Counted from the stretch's first letter, positions 1,905 to 64,000 are shown. The stretch: 64,000 nucleotides of DNA from Thermoguttaceae bacterium (GCA_045599605.1 JAZRWE010000033.1:85687-149686), one strand, 5' to 3'. The notes: generated from the letters alone by a model not told the origin. Numbers and translations are program-made.

Positions 1905-3212
1905 TTAGGATAACGACATGCAGAGGAATAGTAGACTTGTGAAGTTTAGTCCGACGTGCATGCCGACGACGGTGGGATAGCTGTGCGTTTTGAAAAAGAC
2001 GACGCCTTCCCATAGCGCGAAGACTAGTATCGGGACCGGGTCTACCACTACGTTGGGAAGAATGTTCTTCAACGCGTTTTGGGTGAGGTAGATCAACGGC
2101 AATGAGAAACAAAACAGGATCGCCCCGCGAGCGAATTCGCCAAGGTATTGACGGAAGCGTTCCTGAATTTTCTCGGCGAACGATCCAAAACCAAGATCTT
2201 GTTTATTGGCGCCAAGACTTCGTTTTAGTATCGCGAGGCCGATCGCGACGACAAAGATGTTGCCGATAACGCTGCTCACCGTGGTCTTGAATAACGTCGC
2301 GGACTTTTCCGGATCGTTGGGGTCTTCGGGAAGCGAGAAGTGAAGTATCGCAAAGATCAACGCCGGGGGAAGGACGACGCGGAGAAAGTTCTTGAGGTTT
2401 AAACTCAACGCCGGAAGGAGCGCGGGCTCTTGTATTTCTCCGTCGACAACGATCCTGTCTCTACCTTGGCGATCGTAAGTAAGTTTTTCAAACGCGCCTT
2501 GGAGCACGACTCGGAAGATCAATTCCTCGACGATAGGAGCAATAATGACGACCGAGAGCGTGAAGAGGATGAAAGCGATCCAGAAATACGGTTTTCCTTT
2601 CGCGCGTAGCAACATTCTCGCGAAGGGATGTTGCGTGGCTAGGTCGCGGTCTTCTTTGGATAATTCTTTGACGTCTTTCGCGTCGGCGGTAGTCGCGTTC
2701 TCTTTGGCTTCTTCTACCGCTGTTTCTTCGCTTGTCTGACGAGCGATATCTTCCGTAGAAGTTTCTTGGGCTTTGTCTTGTTCGTCGGCATTGTCGACGG
2801 TTTGTGCGATAGTTTCTTGCGCGACGCTTTCCTGCGCCTCGTTTGCCGATTCGGACGCGTCGTCGTTTTCTTGCGACTGCTCTATTTGAATTTCGTTGTT
2901 GGTTTCCGTTTGGACTACTTGCTGTTCGTGGAAGTTGGGCGTCAGGTAGCGTTCCAACGGCATAACGGCGATCACGCCGATCGTGGGGCCGACGATCGTG
3001 AAAAGTAAAAAGAATCCAAACGCGACTCCGATCGACCATGGGACGGGCTTATATAGTTGAGGTTTGGAATCGTCTTTGTGAAATATTGAGAAACCGTACC
3101 GCCAGTTGGTTACCGAGAGAAAGACGTAAGCGCATACGATCGCGGTCGGGATCAGGAACCATGGCGAGCGGGTATTGAATGAAAATTCAGCGAAGAGACA
3201 GGCGTTCAACAT
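1905..3212 (-). CDS. CPBP-family (CAAX protease-like / Abi) intramembrane metalloprotease-like membrane protein with an acidic Q/E-rich loop insertion
   Basis: It has multiple hydrophobic segments. It carries the EExxxR motif (VEELIFRV) and an FxxxH motif (FAILHF) characteristic of PF02517. The third motif, HxxxN, is not evident. Confidence 0.55.
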   Translation of the reverse strand: MLNACLFAEFSFNTRSPWFLIPTAIVCAYVFLSVTNWRYGFSIFHKDDSKPQLYKPVPWSIGVAFGFFLLFTIVGPTIGVIAVMPLERYLTPNFHEQQVVQTETNNEIQIEQSQENDDASESANEAQESVAQETIAQTVDNADEQDKAQETSTEDIARQTSEETAVEEAKENATTADAKDVKELSKEDRDLATQHPFARMLLRAKGKPYFWIAFILFTLSVVIIAPIVEELIFRVVLQGAFEKLTYDRQGRDRIVVDGEIQEPALLPALSLNLKNFLRVVLPPALIFAILHFSLPEDPNDPEKSATLFKTTVSSVIGNIFVVAIGLAILKRSLGANKQDLGFGSFAEKIQERFRQYLGEFARGAILFCFSLPLIYLTQNALKNILPNVVVDPVPILVFALWEGVVFFKTHSYPTVVGMHVGLNFTSLLFLCMSLS

Positions 3213-3310: not shown

Positions 3311-3952
3311 TCATTTCTTATTGAGCGTCATCGCGGCGCGGATATAGACCCAGCCGGAATAGAGCGTCAAATAGACGACGACGTACAACAACAAGACGAA
3401 CGCGACTTTGAGCCAACACGGCGCGGCGTCGCCCATGATGAGAATGAGGAAGCCGAGAGGCAGGTCGACGCATTGCAACGCCGTCTTCCATTTTCCGACC
3501 CACTTCGCGGAGAAGTCGCCGCCGCTAGATTCGACCATCGAGCGGAGCATCGTGACGAACATTTCGCGCATAATGATCGCGACGACCATCCAAGTGGCGA
3601 CGCCGATAGGAATTTTGCACATCGGACAAGACCCCGTCGCGCAAGCGCTATTGAAGAGGTCGTGTAGTTCGGGCACGGCGACGAAGTAGATGAACGTGCC
3701 GCAGACGAGCGCTTTATCGGCGAACGGATCCATGATGCGTCCGAATTGCGTCTTCTGGTTGAATTTTCTCGCCCACCATCCGTCGACGTAGTCGGTCAAC
3801 GCGGCGATAACGAACAGAACGAGGCAGGTCTTATAGTAATGGAACGGGAAGATCGCAAAGAGAACGAGCGAGAGGACGATACGCGCTACAGTTAACGCGT
3901 TCGGAACATTGTACAGTTTGCTATTCGGAGAGGCTTGTTGGTTCTCGGACAT
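3311..3952 (-). CDS. pgsA: CDP-diacylglycerol--glycerol-3-phosphate 3-phosphatidyltransferase
   Basis: It carries the CDP-alcohol phosphatidyltransferase signature D-G-x2-A-R-x8-G-x3-D-x3-D (DYVDGWWARKFNQKTQFGRIMDPFADK). It is a multi-TM protein of 213 aa. Confidence 0.8.
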   Translation of the reverse strand: MSENQQASPNSKLYNVPNALTVARIVLSLVLFAIFPFHYYKTCLVLFVIAALTDYVDGWWARKFNQKTQFGRIMDPFADKALVCGTFIYFVAVPELHDLFNSACATGSCPMCKIPIGVATWMVVAIIMREMFVTMLRSMVESSGGDFSAKWVGKWKTALQCVDLPLGFLILIMGDAAPCWLKVAFVLLLYVVVYLTLYSGWVYIRAAMTLNKK

Positions 3953-4000
3953 AGTTTTCGCTCCTTGATTTTTTTATTGCTTGGTGGGTTTAAGCGAAAG

Positions 4001-46271: not shown

Positions 46272-47117
46272 ATGATCGAAAAAGACGTTGAAGTATCCGA
46301 TTACGTGTCGCCGTCGAAGTTGTGCAATTACACGATCAATCCGTATGTCGGTTGTCCGCATGCTTGTCGGTACTGTTACGCGTCGTTTATGAAGCGTTTC
46401 ACGGAACATGAAGAACCTTGGGGGGAGTTCCTTGACGTCAAGCGTTGTTCTAAGCCGTTAGGCGCGAAGCGATTGACGGGCAAGACCGTCTTTATGTCGT
46501 CGGTCACGGATTGTTATAATCCTTGGGAGGCGAAGTACGGAATAACGCGTAGGATCTTGGAGGAGTTGGCGCCGATCGAATGCGAGCTGTCGATCACGAC
46601 GAAGTCCGATCTCTTGTTGCGCGACCTCGATCTGCTGAAAGCGCGAACGGAGTTGTTTCGACGTCCTAAGACATTATTTGACTTTGCCGAGCCCGACGAG
46701 CGTTGCGGGATACGCGTTCTCGCGTCGGTCAACACGCTCGACGAAGGATTCAGAACGGATATGGATCGCGCTTCCCCGATCGCGAAGCGGTTGGAGATGT
46801 TGAAGGTCTGTCACGCGGCGGGTATTCCGACGCTGTTGTTCATGTCGCCGATATTTCCGCATATCACCGACTTTCGCGCGATCGTCGACGCCGCGGCTTC
46901 TTATGTCGACGCGTTTTGGTTCGAGAACCTGAATCTTCGCCCTGATTTTGAAGACGCGATATTGTTTTATATTCGCGAACGTTATCCGCAATATTTTGAA
47001 ACGTATCTCGATATTTATCGTCGCGGCGATCTGTCGTATTGGCGCGCGCTAAAAGAAGAGATCAAAGAGTATTGCGAACATAAAGGCGTCGCGTTTCAAT
47101 TATGTTTTCACTATTGA
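46272..47117 (+). CDS. radical SAM protein, SPL (spore-photoproduct-lyase-like / DNA repair photolyase COG1533) family
   Basis: The N-terminal INPYVGCPHACRYCYASF contains the C-x3-C-x2-C radical SAM cluster motif in the exact context typical of the SPL family. Confidence 0.75.
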   Translation: MIEKDVEVSDYVSPSKLCNYTINPYVGCPHACRYCYASFMKRFTEHEEPWGEFLDVKRCSKPLGAKRLTGKTVFMSSVTDCYNPWEAKYGITRRILEELAPIECELSITTKSDLLLRDLDLLKARTELFRRPKTLFDFAEPDERCGIRVLASVNTLDEGFRTDMDRASPIAKRLEMLKVCHAAGIPTLLFMSPIFPHITDFRAIVDAAASYVDAFWFENLNLRPDFEDAILFYIRERYPQYFETYLDIYRRGDLSYWRALKEEIKEYCEHKGVAFQLCFHY

Positions 47118-51904: not shown

Positions 51905-54900
51905 TCACGGTTCCGTTCGCGCGTTTCTGAAACCCGGTCTATCGGCTTCGGGGCGTTTGTCGGCGAGGGCTTTTCCTTTAAGTATAGCGTTGTACAGCGC
52001 TTGCCATTGCGCGTCGTCTTTTGACTCGAACACGAGCGCGGGCGAATCTTCCGGCGCGTTCTTATCGGTGGAGAGTCCGCGTCCGCCTGCGGCTTTGGCT
52101 AAGTGCGCGTTGAGTAGCGCGCTCTTTTCAGGTCGCGTGAGGTCGATCCAGCCGAAACGTCCTATCCAGTCGGTGTTCGGACCTTCAAAGACTTCGGAAC
52201 GATCGCGATTTTCGCCCGTAAGACGTTTATGGCAGTCCGCGCATTTCTCGGCGTAGATCGGCGCGAGTTCTTTACTGAACCAGTCTGCGAGTCCGGCTTT
52301 ATCGAGCGGCGCCCAGCGGTCGCGTCTGCCCGCGGATAGCGGCCGCGCGTTGGCGTAGGTCCCTTGATAGATCGCGTTAGAATCGAGCCAGAAATAGACG
52401 CGGCGCAGCGAGACGTCGTCGACTTCTTGACCGCAATGCTCTTTCGTGAAATATTCAGGCAAACGACTAGCGAGCGCGCCCGTCGTGTACGGCATATTGA
52501 CCGCGGAAGTCGTCCATAACAGCCAATAGAATTGCACTAACGGCTTGCCGAGCGCTTGTTGGTCTTCCGGCATTTCCCCGGTAAGCATATCCGCTTGACG
52601 ATACGAACGACTCTTTAATAACAACGATTCGTAACTTGCGCTGAAATAACGAGTAGCGTCGCCGCTGAGATCGTATCCGCCCGTCGGGTCGGCGCCGTCG
52701 TGACAGGAAACGCAGTAGCGATCCAGTACCGGTTGCATCAGCGACGGATAATCGACTACGCCGGCGTCGAGCGAGAGATTGCCGTCGTGCGATTGGCGGT
52801 ATTCGTACGCGTCGTAGATAAAATCAGGCAATACGGGCATATCGGGACTACGCAGCGCGGCGGTCGGGCGACGGCTCTCGTCTTGCGCGGTCGCGGGTAT
52901 CGAGTCGCGATCTTCGTGACAGCCGACGCAGCCGATCGATTCTCCGGGCATGAATTGCGCGGCGCTCGTCATGCGCTGTATCTCGCGTCCTTCCGCGTCT
53001 AGCGCTTGGAAATAGATCTCGCGCAACGCCGGGACGTAGAAATTCGCGCTGCCGTCTTCGTCGACCGGGACTTCGCCCCAGCAACGCTTGGCGTAATACG
53101 TCGCCACGCCCATCGACGGCGATTGGTCGAACGAACGGTCATACAGTTCTTCCGATTTGCGTATCTGTTCCATAATGCGCAGCTTCTTGACTTCGCCGCG
53201 CTTCACGATCGGTTCGAGCCCTTGATAGACGTCCGCGAGAACGACCTGTCCGACGGGGTCGCCTTCAAGCAGATCCATGCGTTCGGGGATCCCCCATTCG
53301 CCGACGGCAACGGCGGCGCCGTCGATCTCGCATTGCGATTCGTGCGAGACGTTATAGTATTCCGCGAGCTTGGAGTACTCGTTGCACGCTTCTACGCCGT
53401 CAGTCTTGCGCAAGCCGCTAAATACTTCCGCGGGTTTGAGTTCCGGACGGAGTTTCGCTTTCATGTCTTTCTCGACGATACGCGTAGGCAGCACGGGCGG
53501 TCGCGGCGTCTCTTCCACCGCGATCGGGCAAAACGCGTCGAATTCCGGGTCTTCCCAGAGGAGTCGCTTCTCGCCGTCGCAGTCGAGCAACCAGATGCGA
53601 TAGCGTTGCGTTTCCGCGTCGTTTTCGTCGATACGCGTCGCGCCGCCGTAAGCGCATAACGCGCGTTCCTCGTCTAGCGGGAACGGGTCGCGATACGCGT
53701 AGTCTCGCGAGACGTCCACGACCGTCGGGAACTCTTTCGTCCAGTACTTGTAGCCGCCCTTATCCGCGCCGGCTTCCACCCCCATCGCGCGGTCTACGAC
53801 GCCGATCGCGCCGTGAGGATAGCCATGGTGAGGCGTGAAGGTCGCAAGGACTCGCGACGACGGCGCGCCGGGAATAGGACGCGCTTGTAGGATCGAACCG
53901 AAGTCGCGCAACGTGTTGCCGTAATAGAGTTGGTAGAGCGTTCCCTCGGGATTCTGCGTCCATAGCGATTGTCGGTACGTCAGGTCGCGGTCGACGTATT
54001 CCCAACGCGTGAAGATAACGCGTCCGTCCGCAAGGACTTGCGGGTTAAAATCGGAGAGCGTGTTCATACTGACGCATTGGATATCGTCGCCGTTCTTGTC
54101 CATGCGGAAGAGGTTAGAGGCGGGACCGGGTTGACAAACGGTGCGTCCGAAACGTCGCGAGGAGACGAAGACGATACCGCCGTCGGGTAATTCCGCGGGC
54201 GAAACGTCGAAGAACGGGCCGTTGGTCAGTTGTCTTAACCCTTTACCGTCGACGCCGACGCTCCAGATGTTCCAGTAGGAGTTGTTCTTAGGGCGGTACG
54301 AGAAGTAGACGGTCTTCGCGTCGTACGACAAGTTCATATCGTATATCGAGCCGTCGGGGTCTTCAAATATCGTCTTGACTTCCGCGGTCGGGTCGGCGGG
54401 ATCGACCATGCGTATCGCGCAACCCGGCGTTTGCGGCGTCGCTTGCCAGAAGTCGTTGCCAACGGAATTAGGACGTCCGCGCATCGCTCTCGCGACGTAG
54501 ATGAACGGCGGTAAGTCGTCCGTAGCTAGCGTTTCCGGATAATCGCTCGACTCTTCTTCCGGCTTAACTAAGTCGACGGCGGTGAAGGGCGCGTCGACGA
54601 AACCGTCGGTCGTGGCGTCAAGACGAACGCGGAGATCGCGATACTCGACGTCGTTTTGCCAAGAACGGAACGTGAATGTGCCCGCGCGTAATGGATCGGT
54701 CGCTTTCAGTTCCGCCTCGTGGTATTCGCCTTTATAAACGCCGTCGAGATAGAACGCGAATCCTGTTTCGTCGAACTCGACGCGTAACGTGAAGTATTCG
54801 CCGACGGGCACGTCGTACGGCACGCGCGTTATCGCGGTATAGTTTTGGCGATGCGCGCCGACATTGACGTGTTTCTCGGCGGGATTGAATCCCAACTCGT

Positions 54901-55267
54901 AGCCGTTGAACGCGTCGGCGCCGATCCCGGAACCGCTTATCTTGAAACATATCCCGGAGTACCCCGGCGTCGCGGCGTTGAAACGCAGGTCTACTTCGAT
55001 CGCGCCGCGCGTCGCGTTAGCCCATTCCTGCGCGTCGTAAGTCAGTCGCGAGCCGGAATCGCCCTTGCATAAGAGAACGCCGTCGTTAAGCGTCCAAGAA
55101 CCGCCGTACGCCTCGAAACCTTCCAACGGTCTTGCGGGGCCGCTCGGCGTAAACGGCATAGCGAGTATGCGTTCAAGTCGAGTAGATTCCGCGGCTTGTA
55201 ACATAGCGCTCGGCGAAGCGACGAAGACGAGAACGAGTAATATATAGCGTAGGCGTTTCAAGTTCAT
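51905..55267 (-). CDS. large secreted multidomain protein: N-terminal LamG/DUF1080-like domain, central TolB-like beta-propeller region, and a C-terminal region with three CxxCH heme-binding motifs (Planctomycete cytochrome-c-domain-like)
   Basis: A signal peptide is present (ILLVLVFVASPSAMLQAAE). The N-terminal domain ends with the DUF1080-like FTFRSWQNDVEYRDLRV. The CxxCH motifs are CVGCHED, CVSCHDG and CADCHKR. The length is 1120 aa. Confidence 0.75.
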   Translation of the reverse strand: MNLKRLRYILLVLVFVASPSAMLQAAESTRLERILAMPFTPSGPARPLEGFEAYGGSWTLNDGVLLCKGDSGSRLTYDAQEWANATRGAIEVDLRFNAATPGYSGICFKISGSGIGADAFNGYELGFNPAEKHVNVGAHRQNYTAITRVPYDVPVGEYFTLRVEFDETGFAFYLDGVYKGEYHEAELKATDPLRAGTFTFRSWQNDVEYRDLRVRLDATTDGFVDAPFTAVDLVKPEEESSDYPETLATDDLPPFIYVARAMRGRPNSVGNDFWQATPQTPGCAIRMVDPADPTAEVKTIFEDPDGSIYDMNLSYDAKTVYFSYRPKNNSYWNIWSVGVDGKGLRQLTNGPFFDVSPAELPDGGIVFVSSRRFGRTVCQPGPASNLFRMDKNGDDIQCVSMNTLSDFNPQVLADGRVIFTRWEYVDRDLTYRQSLWTQNPEGTLYQLYYGNTLRDFGSILQARPIPGAPSSRVLATFTPHHGYPHGAIGVVDRAMGVEAGADKGGYKYWTKEFPTVVDVSRDYAYRDPFPLDEERALCAYGGATRIDENDAETQRYRIWLLDCDGEKRLLWEDPEFDAFCPIAVEETPRPPVLPTRIVEKDMKAKLRPELKPAEVFSGLRKTDGVEACNEYSKLAEYYNVSHESQCEIDGAAVAVGEWGIPERMDLLEGDPVGQVVLADVYQGLEPIVKRGEVKKLRIMEQIRKSEELYDRSFDQSPSMGVATYYAKRCWGEVPVDEDGSANFYVPALREIYFQALDAEGREIQRMTSAAQFMPGESIGCVGCHEDRDSIPATAQDESRRPTAALRSPDMPVLPDFIYDAYEYRQSHDGNLSLDAGVVDYPSLMQPVLDRYCVSCHDGADPTGGYDLSGDATRYFSASYESLLLKSRSYRQADMLTGEMPEDQQALGKPLVQFYWLLWTTSAVNMPYTTGALASRLPEYFTKEHCGQEVDDVSLRRVYFWLDSNAIYQGTYANARPLSAGRRDRWAPLDKAGLADWFSKELAPIYAEKCADCHKRLTGENRDRSEVFEGPNTDWIGRFGWIDLTRPEKSALLNAHLAKAAGGRGLSTDKNAPEDSPALVFESKDDAQWQALYNAILKGKALADKRPEADRPGFRNARTEP

Positions 55268-59800: not shown

Positions 59801-60001
59801 ATGACGTCGCTCGCTTTCATCTTGGGCGTCGCGCCCTTGATGTACGGTATGGGCGCGGGACACGAGATGCGCTTTGCGCTCGGCGTCGCCGTATTCTCCG
59901 GGATGATCGGCGTTACTGTTTTCGGCGTCTTCTTGACCCCGGTGTTCTACTACGTCATCAGAAAGTTTTCGTGGAAGAAACGCCGCGAAAGCGTGAAATG
60001 A
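56855..60001 (+). CDS. RND family efflux transporter (HAE1/AcrB-like), TTG start
   Basis: The N-terminus is (M)ARFFIDRPIFASVLSILIVLIGALAYFKLPLAQYPNVAPPTI, the canonical AcrB start. It has 12 TM helices and two large periplasmic loops over 1048 aa. An SD (AAAGGG) lies 8 nt upstream of the TTG. Confidence 0.9.
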   Translation: MARFFIDRPIFASVLSILIVLIGALAYFKLPLAQYPNVAPPTINVSASYTGANARAVADSVTTLVEEQINGVEGMLYMESNSSNDGRMSINITFETGTNLDDALVLVQNRVSLATAKLPEQVKKSGVTVRKRSPTNLMMINFISPDKKFNQVYLSNYVSLRVRDALSRVEGVGDISIFGEKAYSMRVWLDPAAIAARHMNASQVVAAIKEQNKQVSAGTLGDPPIDKPIVFQIPTNVRGRLTEPEDFEQIVVKTDDAGRVTLLKDVARVELAALSTTITSAFNGLPTVTLSIYQLPDANAVATAKRVRKTLAELSKSFPDGLVYDVSFDTTPYVEESIREVKKTFIEAIVLVAIVVILFLQSWRAAVIPLLAVPISLIGTCAAMYALGFSLNNLSLFGLVLAIGIVVDDAIVVVENVERHMAKGLSPKDAAYVAMKEVSGALVAIALVLASVFVPASCVPGIVGMFYREFALTIAVSTLISCFVSLTLSPALCAVFLLPKGARRDPITFLVDVCFGWLFKLFNGVFNITTAVYVGIVRCLLRVSLLVLIVYGGLIYLTAQEFTNTRTGFIPQQDKGIMRGAVQLPDSASLFRTREMMRKAYRLALETEGVKNVIGFEGRSNLVDSAASNVGSLMFILAPFEERAKSGRTDVVIQEELLKKFSQLQEGKAFVFRSPPVDGVGLGGFKVQLQDKSGSKDLSNLQAVGDMIVDEGTQVPEIFSLQNAFRGATPQLFIDVDRKKLKSMNVSLDDVFDTLNIYLGSDYVNDITFLERSFRVTAQADWSRRSCADDIYRLYVQNKKGESVPLGSLLTARDITGPMAIKRFNMFPSSAISGQTAPGYSSGEAMKAMERLLDEKLPDSMGYEWTELALLEKRAGNTAIYVFALAVVLVFLLLAALYESWSLPFAIVLVVPMCLLCSLVGVNIAQSDMNVFTQIGFFVLIGLACKNAILIVEFAKDLQEQEDMSSFDATLRACRLRLRPIVMTSLAFILGVAPLMYGMGAGHEMRFALGVAVFSGMIGVTVFGVFLTPVFYYVIRKFSWKKRRESVK

Positions 60002-60046
60002 CAATAGCGTAGACCTTGGAATCTGCTAGTCGCGCTTTAATGATAA

Positions 60047-60089
60047 AAGGCGTCGCGTATTTTGCTCGCGGCGCCTTATTTTATTTCTT
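60047..60089 (+). terminator. rho-independent terminator after the RND pump gene (AAGGCGTCGCG...CGCGGCGCCTT, then ATTTTATTTCTT)
   Basis: An 11-bp stem containing one G-U pair is followed by a T-rich run. Confidence 0.55.
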
Positions 60090-60518
60090 GCAAGACAAGA
60101 CGAAATGAAGAACGTTGGCTCGCCGAGGGTTCCGCATAACGTGTCGAGTTCTCGTGAAGAGTAGGGCGCGACGAAGAAACGCCGCCGTCTATGCGTCTAA
60201 GAACGTTGGTAAAGAAACGCGTAATTCAGCCGCAAGAAACAAAAAATCGGCGCGGTATCAAATGAAACGCACGCCGATTTTCAGAATACTATATATTGCT
60301 TATCTGGACTCTCTCGTAACAAAGAAGACGCGGAAGCGTCGTCTTTGTTCGATATTACGCCAAAATGGGTAAACACCCTAATAAGACGCTAATTCTCAAA
60401 GAATCAGCGTAACGATCAACGTATCGTTCGACGCTCGCATAAAGCGAGGATTGAGGCGCGACAGGACTAGGTCCTATCGCACGTGTGAAAGCGAAGGCGC
60501 GAGCTAACGCGCAACGAC

Positions 60519-60695
60519 TCATTCTTCGTCGGCGTCGTCTTGGTCGATATCACGACCGGGGTCGTATTCAGGACGAAGGAGAGCGGACTTGTCTTTATCA
60601 AGTTCTTGGTAGTCGTTGACGTTTTCTTTGGCTTCGAAAGACAAAACGGTGCAGACGGGCGCGGCGTACTTTTCGCGGTTGGCAAATTTCATCAT
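60519..60695 (-). CDS. small acidic protein (58 aa) of unknown function; candidate substrate peptide of the adjacent RRE/kinase/nucleotidyltransferase/peptidase operon
   Basis: The ORF encodes MMKFANREKYAAPVCTVLSFEAKENVNDYQELDKDKSALLRPEYDPGRDIDQDDADEE. An SD (AAAGGA) lies 6 nt upstream of the first ATG (60695). Upstream of it is a 275-bp AT-rich region, and a hairpin lies downstream at 60494-60510. Confidence 0.4.
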   Translation of the reverse strand: MMKFANREKYAAPVCTVLSFEAKENVNDYQELDKDKSALLRPEYDPGRDIDQDDADEE

Positions 60696-60991
60696 AGTGT
60701 TCCTTTTTATAAGCAATATTGTCGACGTAACAGCAAAAGCTGATCCCCACGTCGGCTGTTAAGGAGAAAGTCTCCTGTAATAGCCAAGCCTATTTCTCAA
60801 GACTATACGCCTTTGTATTGTATTATCTTTTTGGATAATGGCAAGGGCGCAGAAAGACTTTTTATAGAGTTTTGTTTTTTCTTTTTTTAGAATACAGTAA
60901 ACAGTTTACGATTATGTGATTTCTGTAATATATTGATTTTGGGTAATTTGTTAATGTGTTGATAAAATACGGCGTCTAGGAAATGTTTTTG

Positions 60992-61534
60992 TTATCTTTT
61001 AACTCTCGGAATAGGCGCTTTTTTACCGAATACGCTTCTTTTTATAGCCCCGAGTTTACGCCGAAAGAACTTCAGAGTTCGTTTTATCATCCGCCGCGTT
61101 TCCCTTTGCGCGTATAGTATTCGCGAATAGAGTTTGTAAGCGCGTGAACGTTCGCAATCTATGCGTAGCTTACCGCGTTCGATCGCGTAGACCTTGGCGT
61201 AGATATCTTCTTTATTTACCGGCGGTTCCGGATTCACGAACGCGTCGCCGCGAAAGATAGCGTCGCCGTTCTTTAATACGGCGACGACGCGATGGAGGTT
61301 GTATTTGCCGTTGGCGGCGCGATAGAGCGCGATATCGTATTTCTCGATCTTGTCGCATAAGCCAAGATAGACGACGTCTTTACGGTCGCGCAACGTCGGC
61401 TTCATACTTGTTCCGCCGGGACAAAACGCGACGCGCTTCTCCTTATCGCCGTCGAGCGTTTCTAGCAATAGCTTGAAATACTCTTCTGCGGGAAGCGTTA
61501 GATTCTCGCGTTCTTCGGCGTTATGGGCGTTCAT
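60992..61534 (-). CDS. soluble S26/S24-family signal-peptidase-like serine protease (SMxPTL catalytic-Ser motif; Ser/His-type)
   Basis: The segment VAFCPGGTSMKPTLRDRKDVVYL matches the signal peptidase I box B (G-x-S-M-x-P-T-L). Downstream, YNLHRVVAVLKNGDAIFRGD resembles box D (KRVIGLPGD), with His in place of the catalytic Lys as in ER/archaeal/SipW-type enzymes. No TM segment is present. A 4-bp ATGA overlap links it to the upstream PqqD-like gene. Confidence 0.6.
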   Translation of the reverse strand: MNAHNAEERENLTLPAEEYFKLLLETLDGDKEKRVAFCPGGTSMKPTLRDRKDVVYLGLCDKIEKYDIALYRAANGKYNLHRVVAVLKNGDAIFRGDAFVNPEPPVNKEDIYAKVYAIERGKLRIDCERSRAYKLYSRILYAQRETRRMIKRTLKFFRRKLGAIKRSVFGKKAPIPRVKR

Positions 61535-61797
61535 TCGCTCAGCGCTCCATTTTCACGCAGCTGAGTCAGGAACGTTTCGACGTCGCGCGCGGCGGTATCG
61601 TTATCGATCTCAAAGCGTTCGACGACGGCTTCGACGATAGCTTCCGCCGTCGTTTCTTCTTGCAGTTTCTCCGCGATGAACGCGCCGACTTTATTGAGCG
61701 TCAGCATTCCGTTGAATTTGATCATCTTCTTACCAAACGGCACGAGGACGGCGGAATCGACGACGCGGCGAAGTACGAAATCTGAACTGAGTTTCAC
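61531..61797 (-). CDS. PqqD-family protein (RiPP precursor recognition element, lasso B1-like)
   Basis: The 88-aa protein reads VLRRVVDSAVLVPFGKKMIKFNGMLTLNKVGAFIAEKL...AEAIVEAVVERFEID...AARDVETFLTQLRENGAL, which is the PqqD/RRE pattern (beta-strands followed by a winged helix-turn-helix). A GTG start has an SD. Confidence 0.75.
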   Translation of the reverse strand: MKLSSDFVLRRVVDSAVLVPFGKKMIKFNGMLTLNKVGAFIAEKLQEETTAEAIVEAVVERFEIDNDTAARDVETFLTQLRENGALSE

Positions 61798-61832
61798 GTT
61801 GCTGCCTTATTGATCGAAGTGTGAAGTTGGAG

Positions 61833-62546
61833 TTATTGGACGTTAGGAAAACGCATAGCGCGATAAGACGCTTGCGCGGCGTTTGGCGTGTTTGTGCAGC
61901 CGACGCGGTAGACGGGCACGGTCGTCAAGAGGTCGACGATCAGATCGAGCGCCTGTTCTAAAACGCGATGCTTCAACGGCGACATCGATTGCTTCATGAA
62001 TAGCCCGATCGCTTCGTCGGCGCCGATACGCGCGACGCTATCGACTTTGGCGCGTTCCAGGAAGCCTATGCCTTGTAACGGTACTTGTTTATTGACGTTG
62101 ATGAACGTCGAACCAGCCCACGGCGTACCGCAAGCGCGCCAGACGCCGTCGAATTTCCTGAGCGCCGGAGCGTCGTCGTTCAAAATATACGCGCCGTTTG
62201 CGCCGAAGTTTTGTAGCCAGTACCGCGTGTGCGTCGATTTGCCTACCCCGCTGTCCGCGGAGAAAAGATACGCGCGATCCTCGTAAACTACCGACGAGGA
62301 ATGGAGCACAAGCGTTCCGAAGCGCGTCGACTCGCGGTGGAATAGGTAACGCATGAACGCGTATTCCGCAAAATCCGGTTCGTTGCCGCTATACTTCAAC
62401 GCGTAGGCGATATCGTCGTCGGTCACCTTGAAGACGACGTCGGGCGCGAGACTGTCGTCGACTCGATACGGTTCCGCCTGTTTCAGCGATAATTCGTATC
62501 GCGCGTCGAACGCGACGGTTATGCCCGCCACTTGGTAATTGCGCAT
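61833..62546 (-). CDS. HPr kinase/phosphorylase C-terminal-domain-like P-loop serine kinase (lasso-peptide-kinase-like)
   Basis: The segment LHSSSVVYEDRAYLFSADSGVGKSTHTRYWLQNFGANGAYILNDDAP matches the HprK core (LHG..V..G.GVL..G.SG.GKSE....L...G..LV.DD). An ATGA start/stop overlap links it to the upstream gene. Confidence 0.75.
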   Translation of the reverse strand: MRNYQVAGITVAFDARYELSLKQAEPYRVDDSLAPDVVFKVTDDDIAYALKYSGNEPDFAEYAFMRYLFHRESTRFGTLVLHSSSVVYEDRAYLFSADSGVGKSTHTRYWLQNFGANGAYILNDDAPALRKFDGVWRACGTPWAGSTFINVNKQVPLQGIGFLERAKVDSVARIGADEAIGLFMKQSMSPLKHRVLEQALDLIVDLLTTVPVYRVGCTNTPNAAQASYRAMRFPNVQ

Positions 62547-63808
62547 CAGTCGTCTTCCTTCCAGTCTTGGGCGTTGAATCGGCTAGGATCTAACCCCGCG
62601 CGACGTTGGAACGCCGCCGCCGCGGAGACTTGCTTCTCGTTCGCGCTTAGGAACGTGCGGAGATTGCGATAGAAGTTCTTGCGCGTCAGGCGCGTATGCC
62701 AGAACTTAAAGAACAACTTCGTCGCGACCCAGGGCTTTTTCCACGTCGGGACGCCGCGCAGACGATGCACGACCTCGTAATTGACGCGTTGCGGGAAGAT
62801 CGTTAATAGATGCCGTATGCGCGCGAAACGTTTTTTCTTCCCGTCCGTCGCGGAACTCGCGAGATACGAGGAGTAACAGCAGACGGCGCCTTCTTCGTCG
62901 GAAGTCGCGTTCGTCTCGTGACGGAAGAACTGGTAGAGCGTCATCTCCGTCAATACCGCGTCGAGCGGCTTGTGTCCAAACCAAGCGTCGACAAGACGTT
63001 CGATATTTTTTTCGAATTCAAGCGTTCCCGCGGAGTCGAGATCCGCGTCGAGCTTCTTGCGATCGAGAGTCGCGCCGCGAGCGCGGAGATAGAGCGCGAC
63101 GTCGAGATAGTCGCGCAACGCCGTTTGGCTCTGGATCCAGTGCTTGAGTAGGTGTTCCAGCATATAGCGATAGAAGTCTTCGTCGGTGAAGCGGTATTCC
63201 GTCGACTCATACGCGACGAGCCGTTTCCACGAGACGCTTCTCCCGCGCTCGAACGCCCCGGAAGCGTTGAAGAGCTTGTAGTGCTGTTCGACCATGAATC
63301 GTCCGGCTTTGAGGAAGACGTCGTGATGCTCGTCTCCTTTGACGTATTCGTAGCCTTGGCGTTCAAGCGCTTCTCGCGCTTTATCAAAATCCTCCGGCCG
63401 AACTAACACGTCGTAGTCGGACATCGTCCTCAGATACGCTTCCGGATAAAGGTCTCTCATCAAGAACCCTTTGAGCGGCATATAGCAGACTCCGGCGTCG
63501 CGAAACGCTTGATTCAGCGCGTTGAATTCTTGTGTTTGCAGCGCTTCGTCTTCGACGGCGGCGTTGAGCGTGGAACCGCATTTCGCCAAGATCGCCGGGG
63601 TCGACGCGTTAGGCGCCGACAGCGAGACATACGCAAGCAGCGGCGCGACTTTTTGACGTTTCGCAAGTTGCGTCAACGCCTCTACGTCGAGTTCGTCGGG
63701 GGGATCGGGCGCCGCCTCGTTATTGAAAAACGCCGCCAACACGTCCAAGAGGTATCGCTCTTCGACGCGTAACGACGCGGAGCCGTATTGTTCGGTGACT
63801 TGCGGCAT
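62546..63808 (-). CDS. uncharacterised nucleotidyltransferase family protein (PF14907-like), first gene of the operon
   Basis: The 420-aa protein contains CYMPLKGFLMRDLYPEAYLRTMSDYDVLVRPEDFDKAREALERQGYEY, the GS/hG[SG]...D.D signature region of this nucleotidyltransferase family. A perfect SD (AAGGAG) lies 7 nt before the ATG, with an intergenic region of at least 190 bp upstream. Confidence 0.65.
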   Translation of the reverse strand: MPQVTEQYGSASLRVEERYLLDVLAAFFNNEAAPDPPDELDVEALTQLAKRQKVAPLLAYVSLSAPNASTPAILAKCGSTLNAAVEDEALQTQEFNALNQAFRDAGVCYMPLKGFLMRDLYPEAYLRTMSDYDVLVRPEDFDKAREALERQGYEYVKGDEHHDVFLKAGRFMVEQHYKLFNASGAFERGRSVSWKRLVAYESTEYRFTDEDFYRYMLEHLLKHWIQSQTALRDYLDVALYLRARGATLDRKKLDADLDSAGTLEFEKNIERLVDAWFGHKPLDAVLTEMTLYQFFRHETNATSDEEGAVCCYSSYLASSATDGKKKRFARIRHLLTIFPQRVNYEVVHRLRGVPTWKKPWVATKLFFKFWHTRLTRKNFYRNLRTFLSANEKQVSAAAAFQRRAGLDPSRFNAQDWKEDD

Positions 63809-64000
63809 AGGATCTCCTTAGGTTAGTCTTGCGCTACTCGGTAATTTTAACAATACGCATAAGAAAGTCAACGCGCAACCGGCCCCGAAACGTTGGCGTT
63901 TGGACCGCGATTTACGGCGTCGCGACTTCGGCTAATCGTTGACGTCGAAACGCTTCTTCGCTATAATCAACGCGATAACGCGCGGGTAGGGCTTGCGCGG

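Follow-up and report, generated by a model that had tools for sequence, protein, structure and literature searches.

A small acidic peptide gene and its neighbouring operon in a Thermoguttaceae bacterium resemble the biosynthetic clusters of linear polyphosphorylated peptides

Genes at the locus

The DNA analysed here is a stretch of 64,000 nt from a Thermoguttaceae bacterium (GCA_045599605.1 JAZRWE010000033.1:85687-149686), which as a whole is called the window below. Near one end, a small open reading frame (ORF) follows an operon of four genes, which encode a nucleotidyltransferase-family protein, a P-loop protein related to ScmC and HprK, a discrete PqqD-type recognition protein and an S26 peptidase of the SipW type (Table 1). 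The operon runs from 63808 to 60992 on the minus strand, and the small ORF is the next gene on the same strand, as had been noted before. An original prediction, made from the sequence of the window, proposed that the ORF encodes a precursor or substrate of the operon. We consider it very probable that it encodes the precursor peptide of a pathway for a ribosomally synthesised and post-translationally modified peptide (RiPP), of the kind that makes linear polyphosphorylated peptides (LPPs), in a planctomycete of the Thermoguttaceae type. The proposal is supported by a conserved pairing of ORF and operon, by a conserved N-terminus with a variable C-terminus, by a YxxP motif and by an operon that matches those of LPPs. 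Comparison with related sequences establishes that the small gene is real and travels with the operon, and that the operon consists of homologues of four LPP core enzymes.

Table 1. Positions of the genes, predicted peptide regions and candidate control elements in the window.
Feature	Position	Strand	Remarks
Precursor peptide gene (predicted), 58 codons and stop	60519..60695	minus	10 further loci have a homologue at this genomic position
Predicted leader M1-A22	60630..60695	minus	Y10-A-A-P13-V-C15 at 60651-60668; F20-E21-A22 at 60630-60638
Predicted core K23-E58, net charge -9	60522..60629	minus	candidate acceptor Ser37 at 60585-60587
Shine-Dalgarno-like AAGGA	60701..60705	minus	5 nt ahead of the first ATG; purine-rich equivalents in homologous loci
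NTP_transf_5 nucleotidyltransferase-family protein (LppN-like), 420 aa, first operon gene	62546..63808	minus	PF14907, 6.4e-47, full model length
ScmC/HprK-related P-loop protein (LppK-like predicted kinase), 237 aa	61833..62546	minus	TIGR04249, 3.4e-7
Discrete PqqD-type RiPP recognition element (LppB-like), 88 aa	61531..61797	minus	Pfam PqqD, 2.3e-18
SipW/archaeal-type S26 signal-peptidase-like leader peptidase (LppS-like), 180 aa	60992..61534	minus	TIGR02227, E 0.003
AT-rich spacer from peptidase stop to precursor start, with predicted promoter and 5' untranslated region	60696..60991	minus	34% GC
Sigma-70-like promoter of the precursor gene (predicted), TTGCCA-16 nt-TACAAT	60817..60844	minus	10/12 consensus matches
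Previously flagged hairpin GGAGAAAGTCTCC, inside the predicted 5' untranslated region	60763..60775	.	possibly without function
Weak terminator-like hairpin directly after the stop codon	60497..60512	minus	folds no better than shuffled sequence
Stronger bidirectional terminator-like hairpin, 14-nt inverted repeat	60318-60349		
Promoter-like site of the four-gene operon, TTGACT-16 nt-TAAAAT with TG	63844..63871	minus	
Divergent promoter-like site, TTGACG-17 nt-TATAAT, towards a predicted ABC exporter gene	63939..63967	plus	11/12

The small ORF and its homologues

Two readings of the ORF are available. A listing of ORFs gives a longer one (60519..60716, minus strand, 65 aa) with a TTG start upstream. 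The 58-residue reading adopted here begins at 60695, the first of two adjacent in-frame ATG codons (the second is at 60692), and has the sequence MMKFANREKYAAPVCTVLSFEAKENVNDYQELDKDKSALLRPEYDPGRDIDQDDADEE with a net charge of -8. The segment CTVLSFEAKE and the Asp/Glu-rich tail that had been described are both present in it. The strong ribosome-binding site that had been claimed can be recognised in the AAGGA of Table 1, and a purine-rich GGAG/AGGA-like element occupies the equivalent position in 10/10 homologues examined.

There are 106 ORFs of at least 30 aa within 12 kb, so that a frame of 58 codons is not in itself beyond chance, and the reality of the small ORF rests on its conservation across loci and not on its length. 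Searches were therefore made for relatives. Homologues of the peptidase numbered four in a collection of 5.8 billion proteins, and their contigs carry the same operon. Further members were added by phmmer and profile searches; two of them, from Thermoguttaceae metagenome-assembled genomes (MAGs), are named hypothetical proteins by NCBI. Because a scan of genome contigs gave two loci and a scan of metagenome contigs one, the true distribution of the peptide family is under-sampled. The related loci (numbered with L below) come from MAGs of Thermoguttaceae or other planctomycetes and from metagenome contigs; flanking genes of 84-89% identity and planctomycete-specific domains also point to this group as the taxon of the window itself.

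Two phmmer matches, P0006 and P0007, were discarded as spurious. They are repetitive proteins of 1,000-1,300 aa, matching through repeated 'FANRSGFDAPIGVVLAWEE' units. Their degenerate tandem repeats (for example RFANRSGFDAPIGVVLAWEERGSCLNIF) reach E values of 1e-11 to 1e-13 against the 58-aa query because the repeats are summed; the two proteins look like satellite DNA in translation and might wrongly be taken for homologues.

It had been suggested that the ORF should be looked for next to orthologous operons, and a homologue is found in every related locus long enough to show it. The operon itself is kept in relatives with all four genes (NTP_transf_5, the ScmC/HprK-like P-loop protein, the PqqD recognition protein and the SipW-type S26 peptidase). 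In L001 and L002 the small ORF comes after the peptidase gene, as it does in the window, and reads MKYTREEYVAPKCFVVSFEPAENVNGSGPSNPTRPEYNIGDDVEQDDIE and MKKMIVREKYAAPECAVVSFEAVENVNRDKPSEIPGSTDPDNPNPDGSYFEPDSP, respectively. A homologue lies beside the S26 and PqqD genes in L001, L002-4, L008, L009-12 and L019. L017 has both the S26 and the PqqD gene in a rearranged order, with S26 not adjoining the peptide genes. In L013 it adjoins the PqqD and kinase genes, and the place expected for the peptidase gene falls in a scaffold gap (N residues at about 2870-3010); that the peptidase seems to be missing there is therefore an assembly artefact. The contig of L014 is too short to show the operon. Two paralogous precursor genes per locus are found in L014 (530-685 and 977-1147) and in L017 (3094-3237 on the minus strand and 3837-3989 on the plus strand), with conserved leaders and different acidic cores.

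The surroundings and the orientation of the gene are less constant. In L019 the neighbour on the other side is an FAD oxidoreductase gene and not the resistance-nodulation-division (RND) pump gene; since the pairing persists next to this different neighbour, the constant unit is the peptide and the four enzymes. The precursor gene is co-directional with the operon in the window, L001 and L002. It is convergent with the operon in L008 (1086-1241), L009-12 (in L009, 10001-10150), L013 (2575-2748) and L019 (1874-2017), and the two copies in L017 form a divergent pair.

Identities between loci, leaving out the near-identical L007 and short partial matches, are 84-89% for the flanking RND pump versus 34-50% for the peptide, 42-63% for the peptidase, 45-61% for the kinase-like protein and 35-71% for NTP_transf_5. 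For the genes of the cluster as a whole the range is 35-74%. These values are well below that of the flanking pump, and it follows that the peptide evolves together with the enzymes, and that both do so faster than the genes around them. One locus, L018, is 99% identical to the window and has three differences within the ORF (one non-synonymous and two synonymous), which are too few for a test of selection.

These comparisons bear on the simplest alternative, that the ORF is a chance frame in a non-coding region such as a regulatory spacer or a small RNA. Short ORFs are abundant, as noted, and neither Pfam nor NCBIfam has a match for the small ORF. However, the frame, its length, its N-terminal residues and the ribosome-binding site are all kept across loci whose DNA is otherwise unalignable, and a scan of 59900-61200 against Rfam gave no family at threshold. 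Two sub-threshold Rfam matches downstream of the ORF (naRNA4, E 0.33; LPR69, E 0.41) were treated as chance. The idea of a chance frame can be set aside as extremely improbable.

Products of the operon

LPPs are a family defined from the lppAKBSDN cluster of Paenibacillus alginolyticus (Popov et al., Nat Commun 2026, PMC13381572). The core genes of LPP clusters encode a SipW-type peptidase resembling signal peptidase I (LppS), a discrete RiPP recognition element, or RRE (LppB), an HprK-like kinase (LppK), an uncharacterised NTP transferase (LppN) and an MsbA-like exporter (PMC13381572). There are 1-3 precursors per cluster, of 35-200 aa, with the N-terminal consensus YxxPxVLxHQxIxFETxxS. LppK puts several phosphates on core Ser3 of LppA, and LppS (S29, H68, D93) cleaves after T-1 in a manner dependent on LppB. 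In the leader F-3, E-2 and T-1 are important for cleavage, and binding to the RRE involves Y-16 and P-13, where LppB N33 and D70 fix the Pro kink and the Tyr (all PMC13381572). The "NTP transferase" of these clusters is Pfam NTP_transf_5 and their "HprK kinase" group comprises TIGR04249, TIGR04352 and TIGR04355, according to the supplement of PMC13381572, from which the LPP reference protein sequences used here were taken.

The genes of the window operon are tightly packed: those for NTP_transf_5 and the kinase-like protein touch or overlap at 62546, and the stop of the PqqD gene overlaps the start of the peptidase gene by 4 nt (61531-61534). The NTP_transf_5 family (PF14907) and the three models matched by the kinase-like protein (TIGR04249, TIGR04352 and TIGR04355) are the same families as in LPP clusters.

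The peptidase has S43, H81 and E103 as catalytic candidates, all three invariant in the family, and its GxSMxPT and HR boxes align with structures of signal peptidase I. A profile built from the window protein and its relatives matches LppS in hhalign (97%, E 8e-11), and S43/H81/E103 align with LppS S29/H68/D93, the acid being Glu here and Asp in LppS. An AlphaFold2 model made from a four-sequence alignment was too poor (mean pLDDT 54.8) and was set aside.

The PqqD protein finds its best NCBIfam matches in lasso-type PqqD chaperones and matches TbiB1, TfuB1, LppB (9x8z_B) and PbaB1 in the PDB. It matches LppB by BLASTP (E 2e-8), with N35/D72 falling on LppB N33/D70 at the same 37-residue spacing, and its sequence resembles LppB no more closely than it does the lasso RREs.

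For the 237-aa kinase-like protein, the best named matches are ScmC (TIGR04249) and HprK-related kinase A. Among seven homologues, TIGR04249, TIGR04352 and TIGR04355 are matched by 7, 7 and 4, all far below the curated cut-offs, and Pfam Hpr_kinase_C is matched by one member only (E 0.34). A GxGKST P-loop and an NDD motif are invariant in the family. When the PDB was searched with the single protein or with a profile, nothing came up beyond nanobody noise or generic P-loops of ABC proteins.

An exporter is probably present as well. The window ends 192 nt upstream of the operon, and the contig L007, which is 98.4% identical over window positions 60986-64000, carries a divergent ABC_membrane gene (PF00664, 3e-27) whose start would be about 36 nt past the window end. 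From this near-identical contig we infer that the present genome has an MsbA-type ABC exporter gene just beyond the window. In L001, L009 and L019, as far as they are sequenced, no ABC gene was seen next to the operon. The RND pump was also considered as a dedicated exporter. It adjoins most loci, but its conservation far exceeds that of the cluster and L019 lacks it, so that it is probably a neighbour only.

Leader, core and candidate acceptor

The division of the peptide into a leader and a core is suggested by its pattern of conservation. In 10 aligned sequences Y10, A12, P13, C15, F20 and E24 are invariant, and mean pairwise identity is 61% over residues 8-22 and 59% over residues 23-27 but 27% over residues 28-58. 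The motif Y..P.[CVLIFAM]....F[ED] has exactly one occurrence in the six-frame translation of the window. Alignment with LppA pairs Y with Y, P with P, F with F and E with E across a single gap of three residues (KYAAPVC---TVLSFEA/KENVN against LYARPMVLSQQPVRFET/AQSWN, the slash marking the cut). By this analogy we infer cleavage at or near F20-E21-A22/K23.

It could be argued that this N-terminus is an ordinary Sec-type signal peptide, that the S26 enzyme is a plain signal peptidase, and that the product is a secreted acidic peptide for which neither tailoring nor the recognition protein would matter. The peptidase is indeed of the S26 signal-peptidase type, and at the N-terminus basic residues precede a short apolar stretch that ends with F-E-A. 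However, this stretch is only about 10 residues long, and in homologues it contains charged residues (YVAPKCF, YAAPECA, YVAPICE). Signal peptidase I follows a small-residue rule at its cleavage site. This rule is broken here, with I, V or P at -1 in most homologues and Phe at -3. Moreover LppS, the closest characterised relative of the peptidase, needs an RRE for cutting (PMC13381572). A plain signal peptide therefore seems highly unlikely.

The Ser and Thr of CTVLSFEAKE had been put forward as possible targets of a kinase. This part of the prediction is not supported: by analogy with LppA these residues would belong to the leader, Thr16 is not conserved, and Ser19 is variable, being replaced by Ala in P0013 and by Thr in one of the L017 copies. 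A better candidate lies further on. In 11/11 homologues read, there is a Ser 5-13 residues after the invariant E24, which in the window is Ser37, and in P0008 the residue at the equivalent position is the sole Ser, Thr or Tyr of the predicted core. On both these grounds Ser37 is proposed as the phosphate acceptor. The acceptor must in any case differ from that of LppA, since LppA Ser3 aligns with Asn25.

Spacer and transcription

The spacer ahead of the small gene had been described as much more AT-rich than the window. The values are 34.2% GC for 60717-60991 versus 54.5% for the window, which ranks the spacer among the 0.6% of 275-bp windows with the lowest GC content. Values of 40% GC or less also occur in about 14 other stretches of the window, and a low GC content here is therefore normal for spacers that carry promoters and not unique. 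The further statement that the spacer has no ORF on either strand is correct for ORFs of at least 30 aa, with only trivial ones of 25-26 aa inside.

It had also been suggested that the spacer holds a promoter for the small gene. A sigma-70-like site is found at 60844-60817, which predicts a 5' untranslated region (UTR) of about 115 nt. Its core, CCCTTG..N..TACAATAC, is common to the window and L001, while the remaining spacer has diverged. Promoter-like sites are present upstream of nearly all precursor homologues; in most of the differently oriented genes (L008, L009-12, L013, L019 and L017) a CTTGAC[AG]-16/17-nATAAT site lies about 75 nt upstream. These inverted genes need a promoter of their own, because convergent or divergent genes cannot be co-transcribed with the operon. 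Together, the consensus match, its conservation in L001 and the sites in the inverted relatives support an independent promoter in the spacer, as had been suggested. The precursor gene is probably transcribed from this promoter; read-through from the operon would also be possible, since no terminator-like site was found on the minus strand of the window between the peptidase gene and the peptide gene.

The hairpin flagged in the original prediction, GGAGAAAGTCTCC, does exist, although its position is 60763-60775 and not 60759-60771, a shift of 4 nt. Extended to 31 nt it folds with -9.3 kcal/mol (z = -3.1), and it is not conserved in L001 and L002, the two relatives that can be aligned. The predicted 5' UTR as a whole has a fold with z = -2.1 in the window versus -0.13 in L001, and the two have no structure in common.

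Upstream of the precursor promoter, perfect palindromes are found in L001 (5271-5324, ATTTTTTCTAAT/ATTAGAAAAAAT) and L002 (2565-2598, ATTAATTAGAAAATT/AATTTTCTAATTAAT), with a common half-site TTCTAAT/ATTAGAA; the window has GTAAACAGTTTAC instead, at about 60896-60908. They may be operator sites for a regulator. Between the convergent RND pump and precursor genes there are about 500 nt (60002-60518) with no convincing gene and several hairpins.

Inverted repeats that could turn the precursor gene into an invertible cassette were looked for. A 13-nt inverted repeat (12/13 complementary, 60072-60084 and 60962-60974) brackets the precursor gene and its promoter. Such a pair is about what chance would give in AT-rich DNA. 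No comparable flanking inverted repeats were found around the precursor gene in five relatives, and site-specific inversion is thus unsupported.

Other genes near the cluster

A large secreted β-helix protein with Chlamydia polymorphic membrane protein (PMP) repeats (745-829 aa) adjoins the cluster in L009 (13153-15642) and L017 (4420-6657), where its gene precedes that for PqqD in L017; a link with the cluster is possible, as is mere coincidence. In the window itself, a 1120-aa protein (51905-55267, minus strand) combines a hydrazine-synthase-alpha middle domain with a 3-keto-disaccharide-hydrolase domain, and is kept at 66-78% identity next to the RND pump in relatives. A 281-aa radical S-adenosylmethionine (radical-SAM) protein is encoded at 46272-47117 (plus strand), 14 kb from the cluster and with no evident link to it.

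Assessment and proposed pathway

Several observations weigh against the assignment of the ORF as an LPP-like precursor. The precursor profile matches LppA with an hhalign E value of 0.11, which is not significant. Compared with the LPP consensus the leader lacks 3 residues, and of 10 homologues six have N, two D, one S and one P at the position aligned with LppA S3, the window having N25. Directly ahead of the predicted cut the homologues have A, I, P or V, an unusual choice for an S26 peptidase. The HprK-related models that match the kinase-like protein all do so below their cut-offs, and its PDB profile search gave only generic P-loops. Finally, the orientation of the precursor gene relative to the operon is not fixed, and all the planctomycete loci come from one fairly narrow clade, so that part of the synteny could be inherited and not selected.

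Some of these points would suit a different explanation, in which the ORF encodes a genuine acidic protein unrelated to the operon (a regulator, a chaperone-like partner or an immunity factor) that lies nearby through genome kinship. The variable orientation, the lack of Ser at the position phosphorylated in LppA, and the origin of the loci from one clade with an RND pump flank of 84-89% identity would all agree with it. This explanation does not account for the invariance of YxxP and F-E, at the same spacing as in an LPP-like precursor from Clostridia (described below), nor for the pairing with the operon in L019, next to another neighbour, and in L017, in a rearranged order. The paralogous copies, and an ORF that evolves much faster than its flanks, as the genes of the cluster do, also argue against it. 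We therefore regard an unrelated protein as unlikely, and keep to the assignment as a precursor peptide.

On the basis of analogy with the Paenibacillus LPP pathway, the following scheme can be proposed. The PqqD protein would bind the leader through Tyr10 and Pro13, with Cys15 as a hydrophobic anchor, and would hand the peptide to the P-loop kinase-like enzyme for phosphorylation of a core serine, for which Ser37 is the best candidate. It would also hand the peptide to the S26 Ser/His peptidase, which would remove the leader at or near the site given above. The NTP_transf_5 protein may attach a further group, and the anionic product would probably leave the cell through the divergent ABC exporter just past the window end.

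More speculatively, the product of the planctomycete clusters may be a linear, polyanionic RiPP of distinct chemistry. The ScmC-type enzyme and NTP_transf_5 would then act on mid-core Ser37 or on a residue other than serine, in an Asp/Glu-rich peptide without Ser3. The pathway would also extend beyond Bacillota and would have moved between Clostridia and Planctomycetota, the short-leader subtype marking the transfer. We put this forward as a tentative idea that is rather less likely than not.

Comparison with known systems

The cluster shares features with paeninodin-type lasso peptide clusters, where the tailoring enzymes likewise include an HprK-like kinase and NTP_transf_5 and where the [Y/W]xxP motif of the leader is read by a PqqD-type RRE. 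The small ORF might accordingly be taken for a lasso peptide precursor, as its leader contains a YxxP motif and the best named matches of the PqqD protein are lasso RREs. However, the surroundings of the operon in the window and in the longer relatives L001, L009 and L019 revealed neither an Asn-synthetase-like macrolactam cyclase nor a B2 transglutaminase-like cysteine protease, and a serine peptidase, predicted to remove the leader, stands in the place of B2. With no cyclase and no B2 protease the product should be linear, and a lasso precursor is scarcely credible.

The SynChlorMet cassette shows some resemblance as well. The kinase-like protein has ScmC as its best named match (TIGR04249, 3.4e-7) and the PqqD protein matches ScmD (TIGR04248, 4.4e-5), although the scores (29.9 bits against a cut-off of 125 for ScmC, 23.6 against 100 for ScmD) fall far short of equivalog level. 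The SynChlorMet cassette also has radical-SAM enzymes, whereas no radical-SAM gene adjoins the operon here and the nearest is the one 14 kb away.

An LPP-like locus in a Clostridia MAG (L016, JAQXHF010000107.1) was found through the peptidase. It has the order precursor, kinase, MsbA-like ABC exporter, PqqD, signal peptidase I-like enzyme (SpI). Identity with the window proteins is 32% for its peptidase and 34% for its kinase. Its precursor (MKKMKYIRPEMDIEKFDIIEEIT...) aligns with the window family without gaps (hhalign E 5.6e-4) and with the same 10-residue spacing from Tyr to Phe. The differences are that the precursor is the first gene, that the exporter gene is inside the cluster, that no NTP_transf_5 gene was seen in the 11-kb stretch, and that the core is rich in Ala, Gly, Ser and Thr and not acidic.

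The remaining comparison is with the LPPs. Their first description dates from 2026 and restricts them to Bacillota; Planctomycetota peptidases (Candidatus Brocadia) appear in the LPP dataset only without an associated RRE (PMC13381572). In the literature searched, Popov et al. is the only paper to mention LPPs, and none mentions a planctomycete counterpart. Both systems have the same enzyme set (a SipW-type S26 leader peptidase, a discrete PqqD-type RRE, an HprK/ScmC-type kinase, here a predicted one, and NTP_transf_5) and no cyclase; the MsbA-type ABC exporter of LPP clusters probably has a counterpart just outside the window, as seen in L007. Both have a small precursor with a conserved YxxP...F-E-x leader and a variable C-terminus; its size is within the LPP range, YxxPx(hydrophobic) is present, and there are one or two precursor genes per cluster.

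There are also differences. The host belongs to Planctomycetota and not to Bacillota; the spacing from Tyr to Phe is 10 residues here versus 13, and the peptide lacks VLxHQ; core position 3 is not a Ser; and the core is strongly acidic (net -6 to -12), in contrast to the Gly/Asn/Pro/Lys-rich sequences of the two LPP cores compared. In addition, the precursor gene here has its own predicted promoter and a variable orientation, and the exporter gene is divergent and absent from the sequenced part of some relatives.

The comparison also gives an annotation to "hypothetical" small genes of Thermoguttaceae MAGs, which automatic pipelines leave unnamed and Pfam and NCBIfam do not recognise. Judged by its sequences, the system is a planctomycete version of the LPP pathway: the machinery is the same, and the differences lie in the host phylum, a shorter leader, an acidic core without Ser3 and a free-standing gene for the precursor. 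A compact cluster in another phylum provides an independent system for studying what LPP enzymes recognise and make, and for such a comparison an acidic core without Ser3, behind a shorter leader, offers a strong contrast to the known LPPs.

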